IMG/VR virus record: IMGVR_UViG_3300009678_000013
Strand: one strand, 5' to 3'
Source: a virus
Length of the DNA stretch: 48,699 nucleotides
The translations under genes and the position numbers were made by a program. Every line of letters begins with the position of its first letter. Within the stretch, counting starts at the first letter, position 1. Below the pieces are notes generated by a model. That model ran no database searches, was not told the DNA's origin, and saw nothing but the letters and a program-made list of their open reading frames with translations. Below are positions 1,250 through 47,561 of this stretch, one piece after another.

Positions 1250-1252
1250 GGA

Positions 1253-1289
1253 ACGGCGACGAGTCGCCCCGTCGCCGTTTGTTTGTCTT
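1253..1289 (+). terminator. Putative intrinsic terminator after the portal gene
   Basis: 9-bp stem acggcgacg/cgtcgccgt (1253-1261 and 1270-1278), 8-nt loop, followed by ttgtttgtctt. It lies 4 nt after the stop. Confidence 0.5.
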
Positions 1290-1293
1290 GCCT

Positions 1294-1346
1294 GCCTCGC
1301 CAAACCCATCCAAGCCTAGCCCCACCGGGCCATGTCCTACCCAACC
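1294..1346 (+). repeat. Short RCC-NN pentanucleotide array, about 11 units
   Basis: CC starts at 1295, 1300, 1305, 1310, 1315, 1320, 1325, 1330, 1340 and 1345. Only the 1335 unit is out of phase. The base before CC is usually a purine. Confidence 0.55.
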
Positions 1347-2497: not shown

Positions 2498-3589
2498 ATG
2501 GCTTTCTCACAGGCCGAATTGGACTCCATTGCGGTGTCCTTGCTCGATTTCTATTATCGCGGCAAGCCGATCGCGCAATCGATTCAGGACAAGCCCAATC
2601 TCCTGAAACTCACGACCGGGAAAAAGAATCTCCCCGGCGGCAAGGGCGACATCGCCATCAACGTCAAAGGCAATTACCGCATTCTCGATTCGTCGGGCAA
2701 TCCGGTTGCCGCTGGCGTCGGCGGGCGTCTCAAGGGCTACAGCCACGATGATCCGGTCGATTACGGGCGGATCGCCGACATCCAGCAGGCCAAGTATGCG
2801 TGGAAGGAACTGACCGCCGGCTGGAACATGACGTTCACCGAGTTGAAGATGAACGGCCTGTCGGTCACGGACTCTGCGGTTCCCGACGGCACGTCGGCGA
2901 TCAGCGATCGCGAAAAGCAAATCATCAGCGACTTGATGCTCGACAAGATCGAGTCGTTCGATGAAATCTCGATGCGCGACATGAACGAAATGTTCTACCG
3001 GGCAACCCCGGTCACAGCGAAGTCCATGTATGGCATCGCCTACTTCATCAGCGATGTTCCCGCTGTCGGTGTGACAGGCGGCATCGATCGTGCCCTCAAT
3101 CCGTGGTGGCGGAACAAGGCGGTCCTCGGCATCGCTACCCCTGGCGTGTCGGTCGCTTTGGTCGTTCACTCCGTTATGCGCCAACTTCGGCGCTATGGCG
3201 GGCGGCCCGATACCTTCCTGGCCGGATCGGACTTCCTCGACGCCCTGGTGGCCGAACTCTACGGCAAGGGCGAATACACGAACATCGGTTGGTCGAAGCC
3301 CTCGACCATGGACATCAGCATCGCCGAGATTTCCTACAACGGCATGAAAATCCAATACGACCCGACACTCGATGACCTCGGCGCTTCGGGCGTCATCGGG
3401 AACGGATCGAAGCGGATGTATGTCTATGACAGCCGCGACATCTACGTTCATGCGATGGAAGGCGAGTGGGAGCGTGACCATGCGCCGGCAAGGCCGACGA
3501 ATGTGTATGCGCTCTACAAGTCGCGGACCTACACCGGGCAGCTTGTTGCCCGTCGCCTGAATTCGTCGGCGGTGTTCAGCATCGCCTAA
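2498..3589 (+). CDS. Major capsid protein
   Basis: 363-aa ORF starting 4 nt after the scaffold stop and followed by a hairpin. Assigned by position and size. Confidence 0.65.
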   Translation: MAFSQAELDSIAVSLLDFYYRGKPIAQSIQDKPNLLKLTTGKKNLPGGKGDIAINVKGNYRILDSSGNPVAAGVGGRLKGYSHDDPVDYGRIADIQQAKYAWKELTAGWNMTFTELKMNGLSVTDSAVPDGTSAISDREKQIISDLMLDKIESFDEISMRDMNEMFYRATPVTAKSMYGIAYFISDVPAVGVTGGIDRALNPWWRNKAVLGIATPGVSVALVVHSVMRQLRRYGGRPDTFLAGSDFLDALVAELYGKGEYTNIGWSKPSTMDISIAEISYNGMKIQYDPTLDDLGASGVIGNGSKRMYVYDSRDIYVHAMEGEWERDHAPARPTNVYALYKSRTYTGQLVARRLNSSAVFSIA

Positions 3590-9937: not shown

Positions 9938-12900
9938 ATGGCGAATCCTTGGGAACGGAATTGGGCGATCCCCCAAGCGGCTCCGCCGCCGGCCATGTCG
10001 CCAGCGGACTTGTTGCCAGCGGCCCCGCCGCCAGCGGCAGCGCCGGCCGCTCCGATGCCGACGGCAAAAGCGCCGTGGGAACGGAATTGGGCTGTCTCTG
10101 CACCCGCGCCTGAACCGGATGGCCCCGGTCTAGGTGATCTTGTCGCAAGCCAGATTCCTGACGATCTGATGCAATCTCGATCGCCGGCAACCCTGCGGTC
10201 CTTCGCCGCGCAATTCTTGCCAGGGATGGCCCCGGCTCCGACGCGACCCGAGCCGGTTCCTGCGGGGCCTCGCGATCTGAATCAAATGGTTTTGAGCAAT
10301 GCCTTGGCCGCGCCGGATGAATCCTCGGCGCTCGGCGATCTTGAAATTGGTGTCAGGCGGTTGCAGGAAACCTTGCCGGGATTCAGGGCAGCCGGCGCGG
10401 CGAGGGAGCTTGCCGCTGATCCGGGGCAGGCGATTCTCGATCAGACACTTTTGCGCCAGCAACAGCGCCGTGAATTCGGCGGCGGCATCGATCCGATCGA
10501 GCTTGCGGAAATGGATCGGCGCGAGCTTGCCAATCTCGGCGCGGCTGTCACAGCGGCAGAGCCTACCCGAGAGGCGGTCAAGACCGAAGCTCGGAAAGAC
10601 CTCGCCTCGGCTGTGATCGACATCGCCGAGCAGGAAGCGGCGATCGCTAAGATTCCAAAGAACCCGGCATCAGAAGCGATCGGAGCCGCCGGTAATTGGT
10701 CGGACATCCTGACCGCGTTTCGATCCGATCCTTATGGGGCCACGCGGTCTTTCATGCTGCAATCGGCCCCGGCGATGGTTCCGCAGATCGGGGCAACCAT
10801 CGTCGGCGGTGCGCTCGGCGGTGTTCCAGGCGCGGCCTTGGCGAGCGGCGCGGCGGCTTATGGCAATGAATTCGCCCCGGCGATCATCGAACAAATCCAG
10901 CGGCGCGGAGTGAACCCCGAGGATGCGGCAGGGGTCTATGCCTTGATGAACGGCCCCGATGGCGAGGCGGTCCTGCGTGATGCAGCCCGAGCCGCCGGCA
11001 TCATTTCCGTGGTCGAAGGTGTAACCGGCGGCATCTTCGGAAAGCTGTCCAAGTTTGCCCCTCATGGGCCGATGGGGAGAATCGCGGCGACGGGCGCGGA
11101 ATTGGTCGCCGAGCCTGCCGGCGGTGCGGCCGGTGAAACGGCGAAGCAATTGGCGATCGAGGGTAAGATCACTCCTGGCGGGATCGCTGGCGAGACGATC
11201 GGCGGCGCGGTCCCTGGCGTTGTCCAAGCCGGGGTTGTTGCCGCTCAACCCGGAGCTAAGACTCCTGAAATTCCGCTCGGTGCGGAACCAGGGCGAACGC
11301 CTGCGGCTTCGGCGGCACCGACCCAGGCAGCGCAGCCGGCGGCGGCGGGAGCAATACCTGTCTCTCCCCCGCCGCCGGTATCTACAACGGCCAAGGAACC
11401 GACAGAGGTTCCCCCGGCCCCTGTGACGACCCCCGCGACTGAAACGCCTCCCCAGGCCACAGCGGGGCAACCGGCGGCGGCGCTCCCCTCGCCGCCGCCG
11501 ACTACCGCGCCGGCAGCCGAGACGCCGCCTGTAGTGACAACCGCACCACAAACCGGCGAGACGCCGCCGGTTGTCACTACAACCGCACCACAAACCGGCG
11601 AGACGCCGCCGCCTGCCGCCGCTCCGGTCAGGGGCAGGCCGACCGGCAAGACGGAACAGACGACGACGGCCCGAGGCACGACGATCGACACCGAATTCGA
11701 GGTCATGGAAGCCGATGACATCCTGACTTCGGACAAGAAGGGCTATGACCCTGCGATCCAGCCTCGGCAGCGCGGCGGCAGGATCGGCCTCGAAACCCAA
11801 GTGGAGGACATCAGGGCGAACCTTCGGCCGGAATGGCTCGGATCGTCGCCGCAGGCCGATCGCGGATCGCCGATTCTCGGTCCCGATAACATGGCCGAGA
11901 CGGGCAACGGTCGGATCATGGCGCTTCGCGGTTTAAGCCCCGAGGGACGCCAGCGATATAACGATTGGCTCAAATCCGAGGGCTATGACATCGAGGGCAT
12001 GAAGGCCCCGGTCCTGATCCGCCGTCGGACCACGCCGATGACACCGGAACAGCGCCGGCAATTTGCGATCGAGGCGAACGAGGCGACCACGGCGGAAATG
12101 TCGGAAGTGGAACAGGCCCAGGCCGACACCGACATCATGACGCCGCAAGTCATGGAAAAGTTGGTCAATGCGACCGACATCGCCGGCCGGTCGAATAGCG
12201 CCTTCCATCAGGCTTTCATCGCGGCGCTGCCGGCGGCGCAGCAGAACAAGCTAGTGGACGCGCAGGGCAATCTCTCCCAGGCAGGAGCGAGGCGGATCAG
12301 GAACGCGGTGTTCAATGCCGCCTATGGCGATCCGGCGATGACGAATCGGATCACGGAATCGACTGATGATGCGGTCCGCTCGGTCAGTCAAGCCTTGCTC
12401 AACGTCGCGCCGGCATGGGCCAAGATGCGAGCGCGGGCCAAGTCGGGGGAAATCCAGGCTAACCTCGATGCGACCAAATCGCTGATGGAAGCTGTCAAGC
12501 GGACAGCCGACATCCGGGCATCCAACAGCGATCTAAAGACGGCGCTGGCGCAACAGGACATTCTCAATCCGATCAATTCGGAAGTCGAAGCATTCATGCG
12601 GATGCTGCACAACCCCGAAGGCAAGGCCGCCTCGGGCAAGGCGATGAACGATTTGCTCCGGTTCTATGCCGAGGAAGCGCAAAAGGCGGAAGCTCGCCCT
12701 GGCATCTTCGGTGAGGATGAGGTTCCGGCGATCACGCCCGAGCAAATCGTCAAGGCGGGAATGGAGCGCACCCATGGCAAAAGAGCAGAACAGCAAACCC
12801 TCGGACTCGGACTTGGACAGCCGAGTCCTGACAACAAAAAACAAGGCGCTCCTGCGGGCGATGCAGAGAACGCTCCGCAAGCATCGCTACAACGACCCCC

Positions 12901-15900
12901 TGCTAAAACAGGTGACGGCGAGACTGGCGGCGCTGGCGAAGGAAGTGAAGCTGGACGTGGACCCGCAAGTGGAGTCGAACCGAACGAAGCTGGACGAAAG
13001 GCTGGACCCGACACCGGGAAAGGGCGGACCAAAGCCAAAGCCAAACCAGTTCCAAAAGCCCGAAAGCCAGTAGAGCCGACCGAGGCGGAATTTACCGGCG
13101 CTATTCGGAAGCATGATGTCGCCAGCGTGACCGAGACGGCGAAGGATATGGTTCGCTCGGCGAGCAATGGCCGAACGGTCGAATGGGGCAAGCTATCCGA
13201 TGCAGAGAAACGGGCTGCTATGGAGCTTGCCAGGGCCTATCCCAATCTGCCCGAAGCCGAAGTCACCGAGGATACCGCTGGCGATTTTGACGATCTGGAC
13301 GATGAACTCGCCGAGGCGGATGAGCGGGAAGCCGAATTCGACGTGAACCTTGACGCGCAGCGCGAAACCGATCCCGACAATGCGGCAGACGTTTTCTCTA
13401 ACTTCCTTTTGGAAGCTCCTGGCGATCAGATAACAAAGAAGCCCAAACCGAAACCCCCTGGCAGGACCGGCGGCAAGGAAGGCGGCAAGACTCGGCCCGA
13501 GCCAGAGGATTTCCAGGCCAGTTCGCTTTTGCATCAGCCATCGGACCTCGACAACGTGTGGACCGACATGGGCATCGATCCTGCCGAGGCGAACGCCATG
13601 CCGCCGCAGCAGCAATTCAATTTGCTCACAAGGGCGCTGTCGGATCGCTTCGGGATCAAGAAAATCCTGAAAGCCCCCGACACGACCTTGCGCGTGGCGA
13701 TCGATCAGATGAAAGACCTGTGGCAAGGCATGTCGTGGATGTCGCATGTCATGGGCCTGCCGCCGAAGGCGATGGGATTGCTCAATGACTTGAACCTTGT
13801 ATTCACCCGCGATCCCGTCAAATTCTTTGGCGCTTATGCCTACGGCAAGGGAAGGTTCAGGGAAGGCAAATTGATTGTCGATGCGCCGGCCATCATCCTG
13901 CCGGATCGGTCGCGGTCATGGGCGCACGAATGGATGCACGCGCTGGACAATTGGCTGTTCGCGCAATTCGACGCCAGCCGATCGGACAATCTTTCCGGTT
14001 TCATCCGCGCTGTCGAATCCGGCGTCAATGTCGATCCGAAGATTGCCAGCGCCTTCGACAATTCGCGCAAGGCATTCGCCGATCTGATGCGGGCGATCTT
14101 CTATGAGATTGGCCCCGATGGGAGCTTCACGCAGCGCGATACCAAATACTTCGGCCTCGCTCAACGGCTCGATCAGGGAGGGAAAGCCTATTGGTCGAAG
14201 CCGACCGAATTGCTGGCGCGGGCCGGCGAGGCGTATGTCGCGCACAAGATCAAGGAAGCCGGCGGCTCGATCGCGAATGTCGCCAAGGATGATGCGACCT
14301 ATCTGTCGGCGGCGGAAGATCGCATGGCTAAGACCTTCCCCAAAAAACAGGATCGCGAGAACATCTTTGCCGCCTTCGACAATCTGTTCATCCAGCTTGG
14401 CCGCGATCAGCCCTTCGGCACCAGCCCGCTGACAGAGCGCCCCGCCGATCCGATCCTGACCCCCTCGAATTGGGATCATATCTTTTCCAACAAGGAACAG
14501 GCGACGTTGCGCTCGATCTTCGGTGATCCGAAGGCGGACCTCGTTCGCCTGCGGGATTCGATCAACGGGTTTGCGCGGCAGGCCGCCAACATGAGCGGGA
14601 TCAAGGATGCCGCTGTCCTGGCGCGGAACACCTATGAATTCCTGTGGCGATCGATGGCAGGGACATCGCACGCCATTGCGAGGCGCACCGGCAGCAGCGC
14701 GGCGCAATGGCTCGCCAATCATATCGGGACCAATCCTGGCAGCGGCCAAACCATCACGTCGCCCTATGAAGATGCGATCTACAACAGGATCGTCGGGTAT
14801 CAGAACGAGCTAACCGCCGTCGGTAAACAGACTGGCATGGACAATTTCACGGTCGATGAACTCGATCAGCTTCGCGACATCATGACGACGGGCGGCGAAG
14901 TCGATGCGATCCCGGCCGAGTTTGCAAACTATCCCGACGCCGTGAAACAGGCCGCGCTCGGGATGCGGAAGATCATGGACAAGGTTTGGTATGACCTAAA
15001 GAACGCCGGCATCGACATCGGCTATGTCCGCAATGGCTACTTGCCGCGCCGACTCGATCATGAGGCGATCGAAAGGAACCCGACGCAATTCATCGCCGAC
15101 GCCAAGCAAGTCTATGAGTTGGACTTCAATGACGACATCGGCGAGACGGTCGATGACGTGCTGGCAGACGGCTACACGGTCAAGGAAAACAAGAAACTTC
15201 GGGACTGGCGCTATTGGGCGCGGGCTGCGGTCAAGGCCGGGGCTGTTCCTGTCGATCTGTATAACGACCTCGCCAAAGCTGCCCGCAAGATGTCGAACCT
15301 CAATTCCAAGATCAAGAAAATCCAGGCGTCCGATGACCCGGACCCGGATGCGATCGCCAAATTGGAGGAAAAGCTCGAAACTGCCCAAGAGGAATTTGAA
15401 CAGGCGATGGCCGACATGCACGATGCGGTCAAAGACTTCTACACGACCACGCTGGCGAACGCTTGGCTGTCCAACATCAGGAAGGATGAGCTTCGCGCCG
15501 ACGATCGGCAGGGCAGGCCGGCTCCGAACAACTTCCTGAAAAGCCGGACCATGCGGCCCGAAGCCGATCGGATCATGAAGGCGTTCTATCTCAACCATCC
15601 GGTTGAATTGGTCAGCGACTACATTCACGCCGCCTCGCGCCGCGCTGAATTCGCCAAGCGGTTTGGATCAGGCGGCGAGCGGATCGATACCGCCATGGAA
15701 CTAGCCCGGAGCCAGGGCGTATCCAAGCGCGATCGCCAGTATCTTCGTCAATCGCTCGACATCGTGATCGGCCGCAACAAGCGCGACAGCAACGGCATGA
15801 CCAAGGTTGCCGACTGGACGAATTTCTTTGCGACCGCCGGCTTGCTCGGTCGCGTCACCTTCACGTCGCTGGCGGAAATGATGAACATCGTGGTGCGCTC

Positions 15901-17245
15901 GGGCCGCTATGGCGATCTGATCCGCGTGCCGCACCGGATGTTCATCGAAGCATTCGCCGAGTTTGGCCTGATGAGCAAGGAGACGCACGAATACCGGACC
16001 ATGATGGAAATGTTGGGCATCGTGGCGAACGAGGGTGTCTCGACCTACCTTGAAGCCGAGTCGCAGGGATTGAACCTTCGGCATCGGTCGCGGCTTGAAG
16101 GGATGCAGCGCCAAACCTATCGGTTCTTTGGCATCAGCGCCCTGACCCGAGCGCAGCGCAACGTCGCCGGCCGGATCGGGCTGCAAGTGATGCGATCGCT
16201 GGCGGTCAATCACCTTGACGGCAAGAACAAGGAAGCGAACGCCTATGACTTCGCCGAGCTTGGGATTCCCGAGGGGATGCGGAACAAGTTTTCCAAGTGG
16301 TTCCTCGGCTACTTCGCCGACGCGGAGCGGCGCGGCATCGATCTTCCGACGCCATCGGAATTGCAGACCCATGAGAACAGCGCGATGACCACGCTGTTGC
16401 GCGGCGCTCTGATGCGCTTTGCCGATCAGTCAATCCAGATGCCCAAGAAATCCGACATGCCGATGTTGGGCCATACTCCGGTCTTGCGGCTGGCCTACTC
16501 GCTGACAAGATTTTTCCATGCGTTGACGCGGAACATCCTGACCCCGCTCGGCCGAAATCTCTATGGCACCGCGACCGGAAAACTCGGCCCAGGCGGCAGG
16601 CCGGTGTCGCGGAGCGTGGCCGCCAATCGCGCCATCCTGCACACCCTGCCGCTGATGGCCGGCGCTGTCATCGTGTCCTCGGTCAATCAGTTCTTGCGCG
16701 AGCAGCTATTCCCGCCGGCCGACCAAGAGGAAAAGGATTGGTTCGATTACATCCTGTCCGGTATCTCGGGCGCGGGCTACTTCGGTTCCTTCGATCGACC
16801 GGCGACATGGATGGTCAAAAAGGCGACCGGGAAATCGCGCTATCCAGTCGATATTCGGGATCTGTTAGCCGGCCCCACGGCGGCCTCGATCATCAGGGAT
16901 GTCCAGCGCGTTTTCGGCCAGTTCGATGTCGGCAACTCGCCCAATACCACGGCGGCGGAATTCCAGGCGGCGCGGGGCTGGTATGGCCTGTTGGTCAAGC
17001 CGTCTTTGGTCGCCATCCTCGGGAGCATCAAATCGCCGACTTTCGGGATGCCGGCGGGACTGGCGAACATGTATCTGTCCAGCGCCCAAGGGCGGGACGC
17101 CATTATCGAGGGCGTGACCGGGTGGGAGCGACCGAAACCACCGAGCCGGGCGGGCAGTAAATCGTCAGGCAAGGCCGCGCCGGCTCCTGCGGCTTCGGGG
17201 ATAAAGCTGCCGACTTTGACGATGCCGGCTTTGCCTTCCCCTTAG
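9938..17245 (+). CDS. Giant (2435 aa) virion-associated polyvalent protein with a ddrB-type ParB-like domain and an HExxH zincin-like domain
   Basis: Single uninterrupted ORF. QPRQRGG (from nt 11759) and ETGNGRIMAL (from nt 11897) resemble the ParB-like motifs of phage polyvalent proteins. HEWMH lies at nt 13925-13939. The N-terminus is P/A-rich with a duplicated PWERNWA, followed by a G/A-rich hydrophobic segment. Confidence 0.6.
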   Translation: MANPWERNWAIPQAAPPPAMSPADLLPAAPPPAAAPAAPMPTAKAPWERNWAVSAPAPEPDGPGLGDLVASQIPDDLMQSRSPATLRSFAAQFLPGMAPAPTRPEPVPAGPRDLNQMVLSNALAAPDESSALGDLEIGVRRLQETLPGFRAAGAARELAADPGQAILDQTLLRQQQRREFGGGIDPIELAEMDRRELANLGAAVTAAEPTREAVKTEARKDLASAVIDIAEQEAAIAKIPKNPASEAIGAAGNWSDILTAFRSDPYGATRSFMLQSAPAMVPQIGATIVGGALGGVPGAALASGAAAYGNEFAPAIIEQIQRRGVNPEDAAGVYALMNGPDGEAVLRDAARAAGIISVVEGVTGGIFGKLSKFAPHGPMGRIAATGAELVAEPAGGAAGETAKQLAIEGKITPGGIAGETIGGAVPGVVQAGVVAAQPGAKTPEIPLGAEPGRTPAASAAPTQAAQPAAAGAIPVSPPPPVSTTAKEPTEVPPAPVTTPATETPPQATAGQPAAALPSPPPTTAPAAETPPVVTTAPQTGETPPVVTTTAPQTGETPPPAAAPVRGRPTGKTEQTTTARGTTIDTEFEVMEADDILTSDKKGYDPAIQPRQRGGRIGLETQVEDIRANLRPEWLGSSPQADRGSPILGPDNMAETGNGRIMALRGLSPEGRQRYNDWLKSEGYDIEGMKAPVLIRRRTTPMTPEQRRQFAIEANEATTAEMSEVEQAQADTDIMTPQVMEKLVNATDIAGRSNSAFHQAFIAALPAAQQNKLVDAQGNLSQAGARRIRNAVFNAAYGDPAMTNRITESTDDAVRSVSQALLNVAPAWAKMRARAKSGEIQANLDATKSLMEAVKRTADIRASNSDLKTALAQQDILNPINSEVEAFMRMLHNPEGKAASGKAMNDLLRFYAEEAQKAEARPGIFGEDEVPAITPEQIVKAGMERTHGKRAEQQTLGLGLGQPSPDNKKQGAPAGDAENAPQASLQRPPAKTGDGETGGAGEGSEAGRGPASGVEPNEAGRKAGPDTGKGRTKAKAKPVPKARKPVEPTEAEFTGAIRKHDVASVTETAKDMVRSASNGRTVEWGKLSDAEKRAAMELARAYPNLPEAEVTEDTAGDFDDLDDELAEADEREAEFDVNLDAQRETDPDNAADVFSNFLLEAPGDQITKKPKPKPPGRTGGKEGGKTRPEPEDFQASSLLHQPSDLDNVWTDMGIDPAEANAMPPQQQFNLLTRALSDRFGIKKILKAPDTTLRVAIDQMKDLWQGMSWMSHVMGLPPKAMGLLNDLNLVFTRDPVKFFGAYAYGKGRFREGKLIVDAPAIILPDRSRSWAHEWMHALDNWLFAQFDASRSDNLSGFIRAVESGVNVDPKIASAFDNSRKAFADLMRAIFYEIGPDGSFTQRDTKYFGLAQRLDQGGKAYWSKPTELLARAGEAYVAHKIKEAGGSIANVAKDDATYLSAAEDRMAKTFPKKQDRENIFAAFDNLFIQLGRDQPFGTSPLTERPADPILTPSNWDHIFSNKEQATLRSIFGDPKADLVRLRDSINGFARQAANMSGIKDAAVLARNTYEFLWRSMAGTSHAIARRTGSSAAQWLANHIGTNPGSGQTITSPYEDAIYNRIVGYQNELTAVGKQTGMDNFTVDELDQLRDIMTTGGEVDAIPAEFANYPDAVKQAALGMRKIMDKVWYDLKNAGIDIGYVRNGYLPRRLDHEAIERNPTQFIADAKQVYELDFNDDIGETVDDVLADGYTVKENKKLRDWRYWARAAVKAGAVPVDLYNDLAKAARKMSNLNSKIKKIQASDDPDPDAIAKLEEKLETAQEEFEQAMADMHDAVKDFYTTTLANAWLSNIRKDELRADDRQGRPAPNNFLKSRTMRPEADRIMKAFYLNHPVELVSDYIHAASRRAEFAKRFGSGGERIDTAMELARSQGVSKRDRQYLRQSLDIVIGRNKRDSNGMTKVADWTNFFATAGLLGRVTFTSLAEMMNIVVRSGRYGDLIRVPHRMFIEAFAEFGLMSKETHEYRTMMEMLGIVANEGVSTYLEAESQGLNLRHRSRLEGMQRQTYRFFGISALTRAQRNVAGRIGLQVMRSLAVNHLDGKNKEANAYDFAELGIPEGMRNKFSKWFLGYFADAERRGIDLPTPSELQTHENSAMTTLLRGALMRFADQSIQMPKKSDMPMLGHTPVLRLAYSLTRFFHALTRNILTPLGRNLYGTATGKLGPGGRPVSRSVAANRAILHTLPLMAGAVIVSSVNQFLREQLFPPADQEEKDWFDYILSGISGAGYFGSFDRPATWMVKKATGKSRYPVDIRDLLAGPTAASIIRDVQRVFGQFDVGNSPNTTAAEFQAARGWYGLLVKPSLVAILGSIKSPTFGMPAGLANMYLSSAQGRDAIIEGVTGWERPKPPSRAGSKSSGKAAPAPAASGIKLPTLTMPALPSP
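11539..11610 (+). repeat. In-frame 42-bp tandem duplication inside the giant gene
   Basis: aaccgcaccacaaaccggcgagacgccgcc occurs at 11539-11568 and 11581-11610 (TAPQTGETPP repeat). Confidence 0.8.
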
Positions 17246-23614: not shown

Positions 23615-23817
23615 TACTGCCTCACAATCGGCGAGACGACGTGCATCTTAGCGACGCAGGCGGGGCAATGATGCGTGCCCTCGCCGCTGACTGTCACCCA
23701 TCCCTTCGCCTCGGCCATTTTCCATGCTTGGAAAAAATGCTTCTCGCCGGTTATGACTTCCTCGCGGCAGGAATCGCAATTGAAGATGTATTTGTTTTGA
23801 TGCTTCTCTGCGGTCAT
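23614..23817 (-). CDS. Small zinc-finger protein
   Basis: 67 aa. CDSC...CPAC motifs. Confidence 0.6.
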   Translation of the reverse strand: MTAEKHQNKYIFNCDSCREEVITGEKHFFQAWKMAEAKGWVTVSGEGTHHCPACVAKMHVVSPIVRQ

Positions 23818-26567
23818 TCCTTCGGTTCCTCTCCGTCATCCTCGCTTAGTTCGCCGAGCGCATTCTTGGCTTCCTCATCTTGTGCGACTATGGCCTTCAA
23901 TTGTTCAGCAAAGGCGGTTTTGATCTTGGGGTTCAAGTGATAGATGTCTCCCGTTCCCGCTGTTCGCTCGATCCGTATCCAGCCGGCGGTTTGCAGAGCA
24001 TCCAGCACGATCGCCCGGTTAGCGGGCTTGGTCACAAAGCGACGTGATACTCTGCCAAAGTATGATGGCAGCATATAAGCGTTCGATGTTGGATGCAGAA
24101 CCCGTTTGAAAATTCCATAGCAAGCCATTCGCAAATCCCTCGATACATCCGTCTTGTTCTCAAACAGCCAGAACCGCCGATGGTGGTCAGCCGCGATCCC
24201 GAGGATGAAATTGCAGGCCATGAGAATTGTCTGATCGCTGATCGGATGCCAAACCGATGACGTGTTGTTCGCCCAAGCATCGACCGCATGATAGATCAAT
24301 GTAATCTTGATCGCGAATTGCAGATACCGTGTGAAGGTATCGATAAATCCGTCATCCTCATCGCGGTAAACCAATCGCAATTTCTTGGACATCGACAACA
24401 GATGATCGAAGATGTCGATGCCCCGTTCCGATATTCGGAGTTGCGTGATTTCGGGCGGATGTGAATGCAGGATGTTGCGGATCATGGCGTTGTATTTTTT
24501 CTGTAGTTCATCCGCGCCTTCCACGTCGCCATCGCGGATGGATCGATCTTCGGACTCGCCAAAAACAAAGAACATGAACCGTTGATTCATCCCATCCTCG
24601 GCAGCCTCGCCGATCTTTAGCTTTGCCGCCTTGCTTGGCGTCATGCCGCCGATGATCGATACTGCCGTCGGCGGAATGATCGTGACGCCATCCTTGACCC
24701 GATCGATGATGACGCGCTTGCCGGCGTGCAAGGTCAGATAGCGTTCCCGATCCGCGCCCTGCGATCCCGACTTGAATTCATTGAACGACTTAAAGAACCC
24801 TGACAGTTCGTCAACGTGGGCCAGGAGCGCCCCATTGTAGGAGCAGCTATCTTCCGATCCCAACAGCTTCGCCAGCGATGCCGTGGTCATGTCGTTTGTG
24901 ATGATGCGCCTTTCCTTCGGCGGATCAGGCGGCAGGCTCTTATCCTTTTTGTCCCTTCCGGCGAGCATTTGCTTATAGGCTTGGCGCTCGGCTTCGTATT
25001 GCTTGCGTAATGTAATCGTCTCCCATTCCAGCGGTTCGATCGCGCTGTTGATTACCGAGGTCTTGCCGCCGCCCGATGGGCTAACAAGAGCGCACCACAA
25101 ATGCGGCATCGTGGATGCCCCTCGAATCTTCTCATTGGTCATCGATTTGAGGTTCGCCATTTGGATGTTGCTGCCGAGCGAGGTTGCGATCGCCGTCATC
25201 ATTGGCACCAGGGACAACACCGGATCGGTCCCATAGATGCCATGATATTTTTGCGCCAAGTCCAACAGCAATGGCGGCGCATGATCCTCTGTCAGCACCG
25301 CCTTGAACTTTGCCCATGGCACCAGGGTAATTTCTTCCAGCGGTATAGGGTCAGGCCATTCGGCTGACATGACTGGCGCTGGCCCAGGCGATCCCAGGCG
25401 GATACCGGGCGGAGCTACAGGGATACGCTTGCCCGAGGCAATTGCCGCCTTGACATCGGCGAGGTTAGAAATGGTTGCCGATGTCGCCCTGACATCGGCA
25501 GTAGCAGCCGCAGCCTGCGAAGCGATCGATGCTTGCGCTCGGAGTTGTGTCGCTTCCAGCTTCGACTTGATGTCGGGGTCATATTTTTGATGGGCGGTCG
25601 CGACCATCTTGGCGATGTTGCGGCGCTCGGTTTTCCAGTTCCAGGCGTAGGGCTGCACGTTCGCCCGCATGGCGCATTGCATCGTCGCCTGCATCACCAG
25701 TTCGATAATATCCTCATCGGCCATGCCGGTGTTCACCAGCGATCCGGTCACGACCAATTGAGTGTTGTGGATGTTGTTCGCACCGGGCGATCGATGCGTC
25801 ATGTTTGCCAGCGAGGAAGCAACATCGATGGGAGCCGACCGATCGAACTTCGCGCCGTAGGCTTGCCAAGCATTTTGCGCCTCGGCAGCGCGGCCTTCTA
25901 CTAGCGGAGCTTCCAGCACCGGGCTTTGATAGCTGGCCCAATCTTCCAGGTCCGACAGTTCATAGCGGATCACCGGACCACCCGCCTCGGGGTAGGCGAT
26001 GTAAATCCGCCGACCGGTTTCCTCGTATTTCCAATTGGCGGAGCCAGGGATTCGCAAAATTCTGGCGACATCATGACAGACAGGATCGCCGGCCATCATG
26101 CCCGAAAGCTGGCGGTTCAATTGCTCCAATCGCTCGACGTTCTCGCGCCCTTCCTCGGTCTTAGGATCGATGTTCAATGGCTCTCGAAAAAGCCAATAGC
26201 AATGCACGCCGCCGCCCGAGTGAATGATGAATGTCGGCTTGAACATCAAGCCCATCAACGCATCTTGAACCTTTTTCCCTTCCAGCTTTTGCTTGTCCAC
26301 GTCCAAATCGACCCAGGCGCATGTCGCCTCGACACAGTTTTCGGCGCTCCCCTTGGCGACCATCGGCCGACGGAGAGTCACACCGAAATAGACGTTCGCC
26401 CTTCGGCCCGTCCATTGCGTGACAAAATCTTCTACTTGTTTGAGATTTTGGGCCATCAGGGTTCGCGGCCCCTTGTCGGTTAAAGCGCGAACCTCGATCG
26501 ATGCCGGGTTGAAAGATGAGTTTTCAAAGACCGCCCCTAAGAAACGGCTTGCAGCACCATCCGCCAT
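23814..26567 (-). CDS. Bifunctional AEP primase-polymerase / DUF3987-type helicase
   Basis: 917 aa. AEP motifs WVDLDVD and SGGGVHCYW. Walker A VSPSGGGKTS in the C-terminal half. Confidence 0.75.
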   Translation of the reverse strand: MADGAASRFLGAVFENSSFNPASIEVRALTDKGPRTLMAQNLKQVEDFVTQWTGRRANVYFGVTLRRPMVAKGSAENCVEATCAWVDLDVDKQKLEGKKVQDALMGLMFKPTFIIHSGGGVHCYWLFREPLNIDPKTEEGRENVERLEQLNRQLSGMMAGDPVCHDVARILRIPGSANWKYEETGRRIYIAYPEAGGPVIRYELSDLEDWASYQSPVLEAPLVEGRAAEAQNAWQAYGAKFDRSAPIDVASSLANMTHRSPGANNIHNTQLVVTGSLVNTGMADEDIIELVMQATMQCAMRANVQPYAWNWKTERRNIAKMVATAHQKYDPDIKSKLEATQLRAQASIASQAAAATADVRATSATISNLADVKAAIASGKRIPVAPPGIRLGSPGPAPVMSAEWPDPIPLEEITLVPWAKFKAVLTEDHAPPLLLDLAQKYHGIYGTDPVLSLVPMMTAIATSLGSNIQMANLKSMTNEKIRGASTMPHLWCALVSPSGGGKTSVINSAIEPLEWETITLRKQYEAERQAYKQMLAGRDKKDKSLPPDPPKERRIITNDMTTASLAKLLGSEDSCSYNGALLAHVDELSGFFKSFNEFKSGSQGADRERYLTLHAGKRVIIDRVKDGVTIIPPTAVSIIGGMTPSKAAKLKIGEAAEDGMNQRFMFFVFGESEDRSIRDGDVEGADELQKKYNAMIRNILHSHPPEITQLRISERGIDIFDHLLSMSKKLRLVYRDEDDGFIDTFTRYLQFAIKITLIYHAVDAWANNTSSVWHPISDQTILMACNFILGIAADHHRRFWLFENKTDVSRDLRMACYGIFKRVLHPTSNAYMLPSYFGRVSRRFVTKPANRAIVLDALQTAGWIRIERTAGTGDIYHLNPKIKTAFAEQLKAIVAQDEEAKNALGELSEDDGEEPKE

Positions 26568-29498: not shown

Positions 29499-29894
29499 TC
29501 AGGCTACCGGCGCTGGCGGCGTCTCGGGCGGCGCTACCGGAGTGACCGTCACAAAATGTCCAAGCCCGTTCACGATGGCATGGAACAAATGATCCTTGGC
29601 CCGAACTTCCTCGGGCAGATCATAGAACGGCACCAGCGATGGATGCGTCTTGGCAACGGGGTCTTTGACCTCGCCCAAGGTCCAGCCATCGGCGAGCTTT
29701 GTATTCATCCAAAGCTGATGACCGGATTCCGGCGTCGTGCCGATGTTATCCAGATGGTAGGACACGCCGGTAATCGCCGAATCCTTTTGGTCTTGCGGCG
29801 CGTCGGCCCATGCAGGCTGCGACGTGTCGCCAAGATGTTCGCATAGAGTTTTGTTCGCCGAATGACAAATTTCAGCAAGCTGTTCTCGCGTCAT
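29499..29894 (-). CDS. RyR-domain protein
   Basis: 131 aa from MTREQLAEI. QLWMNTKLADGWTLGEVKDPVAKTHPSLVPFYDLPEEVRAKD resembles the RyR repeat consensus. The track ORF extends to 30167 only because the array has no stops. Confidence 0.6.
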   Translation of the reverse strand: MTREQLAEICHSANKTLCEHLGDTSQPAWADAPQDQKDSAITGVSYHLDNIGTTPESGHQLWMNTKLADGWTLGEVKDPVAKTHPSLVPFYDLPEEVRAKDHLFHAIVNGLGHFVTVTPVAPPETPPAPVA

Positions 29895-29990
29895 CTTTCC
29901 CTCTTTCCGCCCTAACAGGGCACACAAGAAAATGCCATCCAGATAGTTGCCGCTGCGAAACTGATGGCGAAGATCGCGCAGCGGATCGTT

Positions 29991-30160
29991 AGCCCAACCA
30001 TACCTGACCCAACCATACCTGACCTGACCTAGCCATGCCTGACCTAGCCCAACCTGACCACGCCATGCCGTTCCCATCCTTACCCGGCCTTGCCCGACCT
30101 CGCCGTGGCGAACCTTACCCGGCCTTGCCCGACCTCTCCTGACTCGACCCGGCCTTGCCC
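29991..30160 (-). repeat. Pentanucleotide array A: 34 phase-locked units with RCC on plus (GGY on minus)
   Basis: CC starts at every position 29993+5k up to 30158. Only 30108 (gc) and 30143 (ct) differ. The array starts at the stop codon of gene 30160..30813 and contains sub-repeats ccaaccatacctgac x2 and acccggccttgccc x3. Confidence 0.9.
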
Positions 30161-30813
30161 TAATCAATCGGCAGAATTTCCCATTGAGTCACGACGAAGC
30201 GCCCATAGGACGGGCGGAAATCGCCGACGCCAATCAGTTTGCCGGCACGATCTAGAACTTCCCGAAGTAATGACGGGCCGACATACTCTGGAAGGTTCGA
30301 CATAAAAATGAAATCGGCTTTCCAGCCCGCCCGCATGGCCGGACGAGTCCGGTTGATACCAGCGCGGCCGACGACGACACGCCGGGTGTCCAGATAATCC
30401 CATTCGGTTGTCGTCTCGCCCTTGGCACTGGCGATTGGCGCGAGCGGCGTCAAGCTAATGACGGCGGCCTTGGTTAAGTCCATTGCCGATTTGCGTGGCG
30501 ACCTGGGGTCTTGAGAAAACTTCGCCGCATGGATGATCGATTGCCTGACATACTCGCCAGGCAAACATAGTTCATTGATTTCGTTTCGCCAGATGTAGGA
30601 TTCGATGTCATCGCTCTTTTTCGCGGCGCTGCCCTTCTTAGCCTTAGCCTTCTCGATCACTGACTCGACGCCCCATCGATGGAATAGAAGGTCCGCCTCA
30701 CCCTGAATCGTAACTGCGACCCGAAACGGCATTTCCAGAGAAATGATGTCCGCTCCGCTGTTCGTCGGTTCTGACAGATTGTCAACCGCCTTTAATACTG
30801 ATGCCTTCGCCAT
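30160..30813 (-). CDS. Hypothetical 217-aa protein bracketed by the pentamer arrays; weak RAMP-like motifs
   Basis: Clean ORF with RBS aggagag. LCLPGEYVRQSIIHAAK and the C-terminal GVGDFRPSYGRF loosely resemble RAMP motifs by eye only. Confidence 0.6.
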   Translation of the reverse strand: MAKASVLKAVDNLSEPTNSGADIISLEMPFRVAVTIQGEADLLFHRWGVESVIEKAKAKKGSAAKKSDDIESYIWRNEINELCLPGEYVRQSIIHAAKFSQDPRSPRKSAMDLTKAAVISLTPLAPIASAKGETTTEWDYLDTRRVVVGRAGINRTRPAMRAGWKADFIFMSNLPEYVGPSLLREVLDRAGKLIGVGDFRPSYGRFVVTQWEILPID

Positions 30814-30872
30814 GTTAGAACTCTCCTGTCTTAAAAGGGACTCATCTTCGATTTCCGCCCCGTCCCGAAAGG

Positions 30873-31267
30873 CAGCCTCGCCTTACCAAGTCATGCCCGA
30901 CCGGAACAGGCCCCGCCACGTCTCGCCAAGCCAATCCAGGCCACACCAAGCCGAACCTAACCGCGCCTCGCCAAGCCGCGCCGCTGCGAACCAATCCGCG
31001 CCGTATCCGGCCCTGCCGCACCGCGCCATGCCTCAACTCACCACGCCCAATCCAACCCAACCCGGCCCCGCTCAACCATTCCCTACCGGACCGCACTCTG
31101 CCCTACCAAACCGTAGCCCACCAAACCTGACCTGACCTGACCACACCAAGCCGCACCGCGCCATGCCTCGCCGAGCCTTGCCCTGTCACACCAAACATCA
31201 CCGCGCCAAGCCTGACCTCACCTAACCAGACCTAACCCCGCCTCACCGCGCCAAGACAAACCCGGCC
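30873..31267 (-). repeat. Pentanucleotide array B: 79 phase-locked NNRCC units on plus (GGYNN on minus)
   Basis: By hand count, 66 of 79 consecutive pentamers end in CC with no phase slip. All 13 exceptions keep one C. The base before CC is a purine in 63 of 66. The array fills the spacer from the stop of gene 31271..32185 to about 60 nt before the 217-aa gene start. Confidence 0.9.
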
Positions 31268-45710: not shown

Positions 45711-45885
45711 CCTGATGATCGGAGGATGCGCGAGCGACCAAGATGTTGTGGTGCAAAGCCCGTTCTGTTTCATGTTCTGCCGCAATGCGTATGGAACAAC
45801 CGATGTCACGATCCCGCCGATCGGGCGGGACTTGAACCTCAACGTAGGACCGCCTCGGGAAAGGCCAAGTGGATTTGTCGAATGA
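45685..45885 (+). CDS. Putative small lipoprotein
   Basis: MRGLVLAVSLMIGG-C (signal plus lipobox-like). Overlaps both neighbouring genes. Confidence 0.45.
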   Translation: MRGLVLAVSLMIGGCASDQDVVVQSPFCFMFCRNAYGTTDVTIPPIGRDLNLNVGPPRERPSGFVE

Positions 45886-47561
45886 ATGATGGATGGGGGC
45901 CGCAGGATTTGGATGGACAGCCGATCGCACAGCCGACGGCTGTGATCCTTCCTTTTATCCCAAGGCCGGCGCCAGAACCGGAGGGCGATGACGTTCTGAC
46001 AGAGGAAGAATTTGCGGCGAAGGAATGGGATCGGATCATCACGAAGCTCGCCCCTGACATTGAAAAGGCCAGGGATGATCTGATCCATTTCATTAAGCTG
46101 ATGAATTTGGACCCCGAGTTTCCGGGCGACATCCATCGATCGCTCTACAAGCCCGAACCATTCCATCGATCGACGGCGATGGCCTTGCAGCAATTGGAAT
46201 ATGGCGAGTTTTCAAACCTTATCATTTGCGTGCCGCCGCGCCACGGCAAGACCATGTTGCTCAAAAATTACATCGCATGGACCGAGGGCCGTCATCCCGA
46301 TGGGAACTCGGCCTATGCGTCCTACAACGGCGACTACGCGATGGAAGTCGGCTCGGCAATTCGCGATGAGATTTTGAACAACCCGCTATTCGGTGAAGTG
46401 TTTCCGGCCTTCATGCTCCGCAAGGGTGCGAAGTCATCGCGCAAGATGACCTCGACCATGAAAGGCTCGCTCTATTTCGTCGGGCGCAAGGGTGCGCTGA
46501 CCGGACGCGGCTATGATCGCGTCGGGGTTTGCGACGATCTGTTCAAGGATGCCGCCGAGGCGGATTCCGACATCATCCGCGAAGTTGCTTGGAAGTGGTT
46601 TACCAAGGTGTTCATGACGCGGCGACAGAATCAATCGAGGACCGTTCTCATCAATACCCGCTGGCATTCCGACGATCATATCGGCCGGTTGACCGATCCG
46701 AATAACCCGGCCTATGACCCCGAGGAAGCGAAGCGATGGAAGGTGATCCTGTTGCCCGCGCTGGCCGAAGTCGGCGACATTCTCGGGCGCACGCCGCATG
46801 AAGCTCTGTGGCCGTCTCGGTTCTCGGTCGAATTCCTAGAGCAACAAAAGCGCCTCGACCCTCGGGGATTCTCGGCGCTCTATCAGCAAAAGCCGTCGCC
46901 CGATGATGGCACTTATTTCCGGCGCGATTGGATCAGCCTCTACAACAAGGATGATCGGCCCGACGTGTCCAAGATGCGGATTTATGCCGCCAGCGATCAC
47001 GCCGTCGGCGAGACATTGAAGCACGATGCGACCGTGATGCTCATCGCCGGTATCTGTCCGGCGAAAAAGCTGTGGTTGCTCGATTGCTGGTGGGATCGCA
47101 AGGATACCGGCGTTGTGGTCGAAGCGATGCTGGACATGGCGCTCCGCTGGAAACCGATCTGGTGGTGGGCCGAGAAGGGCCATATCACGAAGGCCATCGG
47201 ACCCTGGCTGGAAAAGCGCAAGCAAGAGCGGGCCATTGTCCTCAATATCGACTACGTTGTCCCTGCCGCCTCGAAAGAACAGCGAGCGCGATCGGCGCAG
47301 GGTTTGATGTCCACGAAGCGCGTCATGTTCCCTCGGGCGGCTTTGTGGACGAACAGGGCCATGCACGAATTGCTGCAATTCCCGCATGGGAACAATGACG
47401 ATTTTGTCGATACCATTTCCCATTTGTCGGCGAAGGTTCACGCAATCATCGCCAAGCGGGAAGCTCCGCCGAACACCGAGGCGGCAGAGGGAACGTGGGG
47501 CTGGTGGAAACAGAGATTCAAACAGGCCGAAGATCGCGACCGGCCTAGCGATGGGTGGTAA
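45882..47561 (+). CDS. terL: Terminase large subunit
   Basis: 559 aa from MNDGWGPQD (the track ORF starts upstream at 45726). Walker A VPPRHGKT and a Walker B-like VGVCDD. Lies directly upstream of the portal gene. Confidence 0.8.
   Translation: MNDGWGPQDLDGQPIAQPTAVILPFIPRPAPEPEGDDVLTEEEFAAKEWDRIITKLAPDIEKARDDLIHFIKLMNLDPEFPGDIHRSLYKPEPFHRSTAMALQQLEYGEFSNLIICVPPRHGKTMLLKNYIAWTEGRHPDGNSAYASYNGDYAMEVGSAIRDEILNNPLFGEVFPAFMLRKGAKSSRKMTSTMKGSLYFVGRKGALTGRGYDRVGVCDDLFKDAAEADSDIIREVAWKWFTKVFMTRRQNQSRTVLINTRWHSDDHIGRLTDPNNPAYDPEEAKRWKVILLPALAEVGDILGRTPHEALWPSRFSVEFLEQQKRLDPRGFSALYQQKPSPDDGTYFRRDWISLYNKDDRPDVSKMRIYAASDHAVGETLKHDATVMLIAGICPAKKLWLLDCWWDRKDTGVVVEAMLDMALRWKPIWWWAEKGHITKAIGPWLEKRKQERAIVLNIDYVVPAASKEQRARSAQGLMSTKRVMFPRAALWTNRAMHELLQFPHGNNDDFVDTISHLSAKVHAIIAKREAPPNTEAAEGTWGWWKQRFKQAEDRDRPSDGW

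Follow-up and report, generated by a model that had tools for sequence, protein, structure and literature searches.

The closest described relatives of the element reported here are the Viral Interference Programmable Repeat (VIPR) loci, which were described in two bioRxiv preprints (April-June 2026) as an RNA-guided device of phages that silences DNA and is related to CRISPR (10.64898/2026.04.26.720920; 10.64898/2026.04.26.720927). We found what is very probably such a locus (we put the probability at roughly 0.9) in a viral DNA of 48,699 nucleotides (nt), IMG/VR record IMGVR_UViG_3300009678_000013, which was analyzed over its full length and is referred to as the window. The locus consists of a gene for a 217-aa protein, here named vipr, with arrays of a 5-nt repeat on both of its sides (arrays A and B), and the window has a third, distant array (array C).

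According to the two preprints, genes for Vipr RAMP proteins occur mainly in phages and prophages, and the intergenic arrays that flank vipr give rise to vrRNAs in which a conserved GGY alternates with a hypervariable NN; the NN pairs with double-stranded DNA, one target base per unit being skipped (usually the codon wobble position), and Vipr binding leads to silencing of transcription in competing phages, prophages or satellites (10.64898/2026.04.26.720920; 10.64898/2026.04.26.720927). Each repeat is occupied by one Vipr protomer, with the GGY flipped out and sequestered (10.64898/2026.04.26.720927). Seven VIPR types, differing in array form and accessory (vap) genes, have been reported, with vrRNAs of 9-16 repeats and some of up to 30, and "staggered arrays with overlapping vrRNAs" are referred to in the same preprints but have not been confirmed there by experiment (10.64898/2026.04.26.720920; 10.64898/2026.04.26.720927). 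VIPR is of interest as a minimal form of RNA-guided DNA recognition, needing one protein of ~20 kDa and a repeat RNA and no protospacer-adjacent motif, and it has been proposed to be older than CRISPR.

The type II VIPR of phage SUSP1 and of a Pseudomonas fulva prophage shares much with the locus in the window: a RAMP protein, Vipr, of ~200 aa in which the G-loop (GVGD[FW]RP), the arginine of the thumb and the residues of helix 1 are the same, a phage-borne position, and GGY/NN arrays on both sides of vipr and on its strand. Complementarity with a 1-nt skip was reproduced here for the clade of the window protein. The two differ in that the vrRNAs of SUSP1 are separate, have 12-16 units and carry both a leader and a conserved pseudoknot tail, whereas the window has unbroken runs of 34 and 79 units without a structured tail; in that vap1 directly follows vipr in SUSP1, whereas an accessory gene was not found here; and in that the window has an extra orphan guide 29 kb away.

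Comparisons can also be made with the backbone proteins of class 1 CRISPR-Cas systems (Cas7, Csm3, Cmr4), which have in common with Vipr an RRM-based RAMP fold with a glycine-rich loop and a thumb and the formation of a helical filament along a guide RNA whose bases are flipped at regular intervals. However, the CRISPR-Cas period is 6 nt with one base flipped, whereas VIPR has a period of 5 nt with three bases sequestered and a guide that is non-contiguous. The vicinity of vipr contained neither a CRISPR repeat-spacer array nor cas genes such as Cas1/Cas2 or Cas10, there was no PADLOC hit, and the only repeats were GGYNN. TRAP resembles Vipr in being an oligomer that reads a conserved triplet about every 5 nt with free RNA spacers, but it forms an 11-mer ring of beta-sandwich subunits and exerts its regulation in cis on 11 (G/U)AG repeats, whereas here the fold is that of a RAMP, the triplet is GGY, 34-79 units lie on both sides of the gene and the spacers carry targeting information.

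A preliminary description of the window, made from its letters alone, had pointed to a TRAP-type or filament-forming protein that contacts a triplet every 5 nt of a GGY-NN leftward RNA. The idea of a filament agrees with the published mechanism of one protomer per repeat (10.64898/2026.04.26.720927), and the (GGUCA)n RNA that was suggested for tests with the 217-aa protein is the right kind of partner, but TRAP holds only as an analogy, as the fold is Cas7-like. The same description knew of no phage element with this architecture, a statement that has become outdated with the two VIPR preprints; the kind of element is already described, and the locus opens no new category. What the locus does provide is a clean phage-borne example from a large and very conserved Vipr clade.

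We identify the locus as VIPR because of the homology of its protein to SUSP1 Vipr, the predicted RAMP fold, the conservation of the residues that contact GGY, the GGY/NN grammar of the repeats, the linkage of gene and arrays, and the skip code. Protein homology and fold, repeat grammar, linkage over 160 loci and the 1-nt-skip code of the clade were each established in this analysis, as set out below.

The repeat arrays and the Vipr homolog of the window

The 5-nt periodicity is real and far beyond chance. By direct recount, CC stands in a single 5-nt phase in 32 of the 34 pentamers of array A (counts for the five phases 0, 0, 32, 10, 0) and in 66 of the 79 pentamers of array B (4, 0, 0, 66, 15), and array B has no phase slip and keeps one C in 13/13 exceptions, all in agreement with the counts first given. 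The unit is GGYNN on the minus strand, which corresponds to NNRCC on the other strand. Of the 125 units that the three arrays (A, B and C) have in total, 121 keep G1 (97%), 112 keep G2 (90%) and 116 keep Y3 (93%), and N4 and N5 are nearly uniform in composition. The preliminary description was right in calling these other positions nearly free, but it did not recognize the NN as an information-carrying guide.

Copy-to-copy spacings within each array are multiples of 5 without exception. The earlier term "phase-locked" holds within each array but not between the two, since A and B are out of phase with one another (their offset of 883 nt equals 3 mod 5). Array A directly adjoins the vipr stop codon (30160-30162), and array B starts 3 nt past the stop of the upstream 304-aa gene (31271) and ends 59 nt short of the vipr ATG; these boundaries are as previously reported, except that the register of array A begins one nucleotide before the 29991 given. 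In array B, unbroken runs of GG units extend over units 4-14, 18-30 and 58-69. Array A contains in-register duplications, with GGCAA GGCCG GGTNN present three times (units 1-3, 7-9 and 14-16) and GGTCA GGTAT GGTTG twice near the 3' end, a pattern that suggests that array A grew by duplication of guide blocks.

CC was also counted per phase in 100-nt windows over all 48.7 kb. The best-phase count was ≤7/20 almost everywhere, and values of 14-20 were confined to arrays A and B and one further site (~1290-1350), which is array C and which the preliminary description, with its two arrays, had missed. No GG-phase arrays were found on the plus strand in a scan of the whole window, and a register-aware detector returned arrays A, B and C and no others (Table 1). 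A reading of the arrays as coding sequence is not supported: no open frame spans array B, the open reading frame (ORF) listed at 29499-30167 enters array A only because the array lacks a stop codon in that frame, and the ORFs that traverse the arrays arise as by-products of a periodic, G/C-rich sequence.

Table 1. Positions of the arrays, vipr and adjoining features in the window
Feature	Position	Strand	Description
Array A	29990..30159	-	34 in-phase GGYNN units; directly follows the vipr stop codon
vipr gene	30160..30813	-	217-aa RAMP (Cas7-like), SUSP1 Vipr homolog; ATG at 30813
Array B	30873..31267	-	79 in-phase GGYNN units upstream of vipr; predicted vrRNA guide array
Array C	1287..1346	-	12 GGYNN units, 29 kb from vipr; seen in the whole-window scan, by register and by the detector
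Hairpin	1251..1280	.	12-bp stem; directly adjoins the 3' end of array C (minus strand)
RyR-domain gene	29499-29900	-	PF02026 E 7.8e-10, PHROG 5154; directly after array A

The vipr gene has a ribosome-binding site, AGGAGAG, 7 nt 5' of its ATG. Its product has no match in Pfam or PADLOC, and the sole match in PHROGs is to a family of unknown function, phrog_4652, although the protein family itself is large (5,905 matches at E≤1e-3 in the protein collection). When a profile built from 20 family members was used in an hmmsearch of the PDB, one solved structure was found, chain D of 36pp, "SUSP1 Vipr protein" (E 3.3e-12), to which the single sequence also gave a match with phmmer (E 1e-7). Comparison by hhalign with the SUSP1 Vipr sequence, taken from phage record KT454805.2, gave a probability of 97.5% with an E of 8e-12 over 167 columns that cover SUSP1 residues 5-188 of 195; the identity is 29%.

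An AlphaFold2 model of the protein (pLDDT 81.5, pTM 0.74) had 99 PDB matches at E≤1e-3 with Foldseek, of which the top 50 were Csm3, Cas7 or Cmr backbone RAMPs. The best were type III-A Csm3 and type VII Cas7, with E down to 8e-7, and the sequence identity to Csm3 is 11-15%. The model thus predicts a minimal RAMP fold with a single RRM core, a glycine-rich loop and a thumb. In SUSP1 Vipr, residues H17, D177, R138, W178, E71 and R179 hold G1, G2 and Y3, and K82 touches the non-target strand (10.64898/2026.04.26.720927). These align to the window protein as H17 to H45, E71 to E87, K82 to K98, R138 to R157, D177 to D198, W178 to F199 and R179 to R200, so that six of the seven are identical and the seventh, F199 for W178, keeps an aromatic side chain. 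Most of the equivalent residues are invariant in the family, and the G-loop, G195-V-G-D-F-R-P201, is invariant across it.

Homologs of the window protein at 46-66% identity were seen in contigs assigned to Planctomycetota (many of them Phycisphaerales), Proteobacteria, Actinobacteria, Firmicutes (Alicyclobacillus), Cyanobacteria, Acidobacteriota, Patescibacteria and one metagenome-assembled genome of the Bathyarchaeia (loci L200-L274). Judged from these sequences, such conservation across phyla is unusually high for a phage protein. The homolog in the deposited phage DSL-LC04 (OR003939.1; locus L005, 4001-4618) is 64% identical and is annotated as "helix-turn-helix transcriptional regulator", which appears to be a misannotation.

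Gene-array linkage and the skip code in related loci

If the arrays and vipr form one system, are they found together elsewhere? The related loci that we compared came from three contigs, the deposited phage DSL-LC04, 80 viral contigs and 75 contigs from a collection of species-representative genomes. In ~93% of these 160 loci arrays adjoin the vipr homolog, nearly always on the same strand. Arrays lay ≤700 nt from the homolog in most of the 85 viral and other loci and in 71 of the 75 loci from cellular genomes, and in the loci other than the window the register-aware detector placed 380 arrays on the strand of the homolog as against 9 on the opposite strand. Opposite-strand arrays were seen, for instance, in L063 (3302-3386) and L065 (2020-2104), in both cases with 17 units and 121 nt downstream of vipr. 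Array length in the clade (n=383) has a median of 15 units, with 45 arrays of >30 units, 8 that reach 60 and a maximum of 138, and the guide blocks for which matches were found are of 8-16 units even within long arrays.

The genomic contexts of the homologs vary considerably. Some stand beside repressor/cro genes, some in replication modules, and others are lone convergent inserts between lysis and tail genes, as in locus L002, where the homolog is a moron; the lone inserts carry their own terminator and promoter-like sequences. In another relative (L003), the array continues into the ribosome-binding site. As both the contexts and the phyla differ, we conclude that the gene plus its arrays is a portable unit. 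The periodicity signal by itself suffices to find VIPR loci from raw sequence. No accessory gene is conserved in the related loci and no neighbor family is common to the clade. An ORF of 134-147 aa that overlaps the vipr stop codon was observed in L005 (4615-5058) and nine other loci (10/86); the 147-aa ORF of L005 has no Pfam match and is unrelated to SUSP1 vap1, and we regard this ORF as a candidate accessory gene of a sub-clade.

The skip rule was examined by collecting gapless high-scoring NN matches under each rule; all detected arrays were used as guides, and the targets were the complete sequences retrieved for these loci, 2.2 Mb in total. With a 1-nt skip there were 260 matching segments, from 44 unique guide blocks, 37 of which had a score ≥10. 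A 0-nt skip gave 3 segments and a 2-nt skip 12, and reversed guides gave 3, 1 and 7 segments at skips of 0, 1 and 2 nt, respectively; set against the 44 unique guide blocks, the controls yielded 1-9. The best 1-nt-skip match extends over 16 units, with 31 of its 32 NN positions complementary. No guide matched its own locus in this all-against-all search of 2.2 Mb, in which the window was included. In homologous but diverged targets of one guide, 107 of 158 skip columns were variable as against 5 of 316 NN columns, where the low NN figure is partly forced by the selection of hits and the variability at the skip positions is the informative part. The published 1-nt-skip rule was thus independently reproduced for the clade to which the window protein belongs.

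One guide of the clade, at position 9775 of L214, deserves separate mention. Its units 1-16 match (NN 30/32) a conserved site ~300 nt upstream of vipr in 19 other loci, which are mostly from Phycisphaerales, and the variation among these targets is confined to the skip positions. From the sequences, this looks like VIPR-carrying elements that target one another.

Proposed mechanism and competing explanations

In the mechanism that we propose for the window, the leftward transcript would bear GGYNN arrays on either side of vipr, and Vipr would polymerize along this RNA, each 5-nt unit taking up one protomer. The G-loop, the thumb and helix 1 would hold the GGY in a flipped-out state, leaving the two variable bases of each unit exposed, and the exposed NN would base-pair with one of the two strands of the target DNA duplex and pass over every third target base, so that the protospacer would read xNNxNN... 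The bound filament would then prevent the target from being transcribed; typically, the target would be a gene carried by a competing phage, prophage or satellite. Since this skipped base is usually at the codon wobble position, synonymous escape mutations would be of no help to the target. The guide blocks of A and B would be excised from a polycistronic early transcript, with array C serving as a separate single guide; A and B are probably made up of several guide blocks, of ~8-16 units each, joined in one register. For this phage itself, expression, processing and silencing, as well as the identity of the targets, are what we infer.

A number of observations weigh against this identification. 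The guides of the window were scanned against the 160 loci, against viral contigs with seeds C1-8, B24-32, B49-56, B60-67 and B6-13, and against metagenome sequence with C2-10, and no convincing natural target was found in any of these scans. Against the first 85 loci there were 11 seven-unit seeds where 1.3 were expected (0/200 shuffles), but these are at only two sites, and the enrichment is absent in the 75 genome loci. Seed B49-56, with 8 perfect units, is antisense to a motif, ENAVRLAA, that belongs to large polyvalent proteins containing an LPD38 domain, its skip falling at the wobble position, and about half of its 80 viral matches are in the LPD38 polyvalent protein family; however, none of the matches extends past 8 units, and for the other seeds (C1-8, B60-67, B6-13) there was likewise no extension beyond the seed in the viral contigs. 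For the match of B24-32 to L057, of 9 perfect units, the only further occurrences in the viral collection were in AT-rich contigs that are unrelated. The match of guide C to metagenome contig L275 (NN 23/24) was rejected as probably due to chance, being in DNA of 34% GC, with the skip at codon position 1 and a post-hoc p of ~0.03-0.05.

The form of the locus adds to these points. Arrays A (34 units) and B (79) are longer than the vrRNAs that have been reported (9-16 units, up to 30), their 3' flanks have no significant structure relative to shuffled sequence (z -0.1 for A and +0.9 for B), scans for promoters and terminators on the array strand predicted none near A and B, and no vap-like accessory gene conserved beside vipr was found. 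A and B therefore depart from the SUSP1-like form of discrete 9-16-repeat vrRNAs with a structured 3' tail, and a scan of the locus against Rfam found no family, hammerhead or other ribozyme. Array B is at the extreme tail of the length distribution of the clade rather than unique.

How would guides be delimited in such arrays? Very long in-phase arrays without tails, together with the failure to find an accessory gene and the orphan guide, are unusual features, and it is conceivable, although we lean against it, that the tail-less arrays of 34 and 79 units represent a vrRNA architecture or a route of biogenesis not characterized in the preprints. Two forms of this are possible: 1. many guide blocks in a single register that are released or delimited by means other than tails or ribozymes, for which degenerate units or the ends of Vipr filaments may serve, and 2. 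very long filaments that would be able to cover >200 bp of target. The long arrays may or may not correspond to the "staggered arrays" of the preprints. In either form, 79 in-phase repeats without a tail or accessory gene bear on how guides are delimited and on how long a filament can become.

Another explanation, which is partly plausible, is that the VIPR repeats are genuine but that most of the 79 + 34 units are remnants of slippage or duplication, with only a few short blocks being functional. Such debris would account for the 13 of 79 units of array B that are short of one G, for the obvious internal duplications of array A, for a clade in which the median is 15 units and only 8 of 383 arrays reach 60, and for matched blocks of 8-16 units even in long arrays. 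Against it are 395 nt free of any indel or phase slip, the retention of G1, G2 and Y3 at 90-97% while NN is free, which argues for continuing selection on the whole register, and the occurrence of long arrays, of up to 138 units, in many independent loci, and we consider it unlikely.

We regard as improbable that the arrays act in cis, with Vipr coating the flanks of its own mRNA to affect stability or translation, as T4 gp32 or TRAP would, and with guiding in trans being secondary or absent in the clade. The positions of the arrays would suit such a role, since A is at the stop codon, B is 59 nt from the ATG and in the L003 relative the array enters the ribosome-binding site, as would the lack of a predicted tail or separate promoter for A and B and the fact that a target for the guides of this phage was not found. 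Yet regulation in cis does not predict that guide blocks of the clade match other elements, at up to 31 of 32 NN positions, with a 1-nt skip only and never at their own locus. The NN are near-uniform and different between loci, as information-carrying guides would be, and an orphan array (C) lies 29 kb from vipr.

A role at the level of DNA or structure, as the preliminary description had listed (two-tetrad G-quadruplexes or i-motifs, R-loop priming of replication, rut-like insulators, T7-like end repeats), is very hard to credit. In favor of such roles, a G-rich transcript and a C-rich template would promote R-loops and G-quadruplexes, the sense strand of the late genes around array C is C-rich in the array, which there comes immediately after a terminator hairpin, and the locus is within a replication and recombination region. 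However, none of these roles predicts the conserved Y3, the free NN, the strict linkage to one RAMP gene on its strand across contexts and phyla (>150 loci) or the 1-nt-skip complementarity to other elements, and the arrays have an internal genomic position with ordinary genes on either side. That the arrays and the 217-aa gene constitute a VIPR locus remains, in our view, the best account of these data.

Array C and the surrounding genome

Among the arrays of the window, only array C, with its 12 units and hairpin, resembles the described form of vrRNA, and its size is that of a single vrRNA in the preprints. It occupies the gap that separates the portal gene (140-1249) from the head gene that follows (1460-2494), in antisense orientation to these two genes. 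The hairpin next to it has a predicted stability of -24.9 kcal/mol (z -4.9, with 0/200 shuffles as stable) and terminator-like calls on both strands, serving the plus-strand portal gene as well, and it is a candidate for the 3' tail or terminator of a vrRNA. From its sequence features, array C looks like a stand-alone vrRNA gene. A promoter-like sequence upstream of it, TTGACC-N16-TACTTT (~1385-1356, minus strand), was picked by hand, fails the criteria of the promoter scan and was set aside as a speculative weak promoter.

Arrays A and B probably lie within a leftward operon, in the order 304-aa gene, array B, vipr, array A and RyR-domain gene. The products of the two neighboring genes, the 304-aa protein and the RyR-domain protein, have no homolog in the 160 Vipr loci and no DNA-binding or nuclease domain. 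The wider neighborhood encodes a RuvC-like resolvase, a RecE-like exonuclease, the RyR-domain protein and proteins of unknown function.

No close relative of the window was found by DNA similarity to deposited phages. Its structural region contains an ORF of 2435 aa (9938-17245) whose PHROG matches are only to families of unknown function. In its gene content the window resembles a complete phage genome, with a large terminase (45726-47561), the portal (140-1249), a major head protein (2498-3589) and a primase/helicase (23814-26567).

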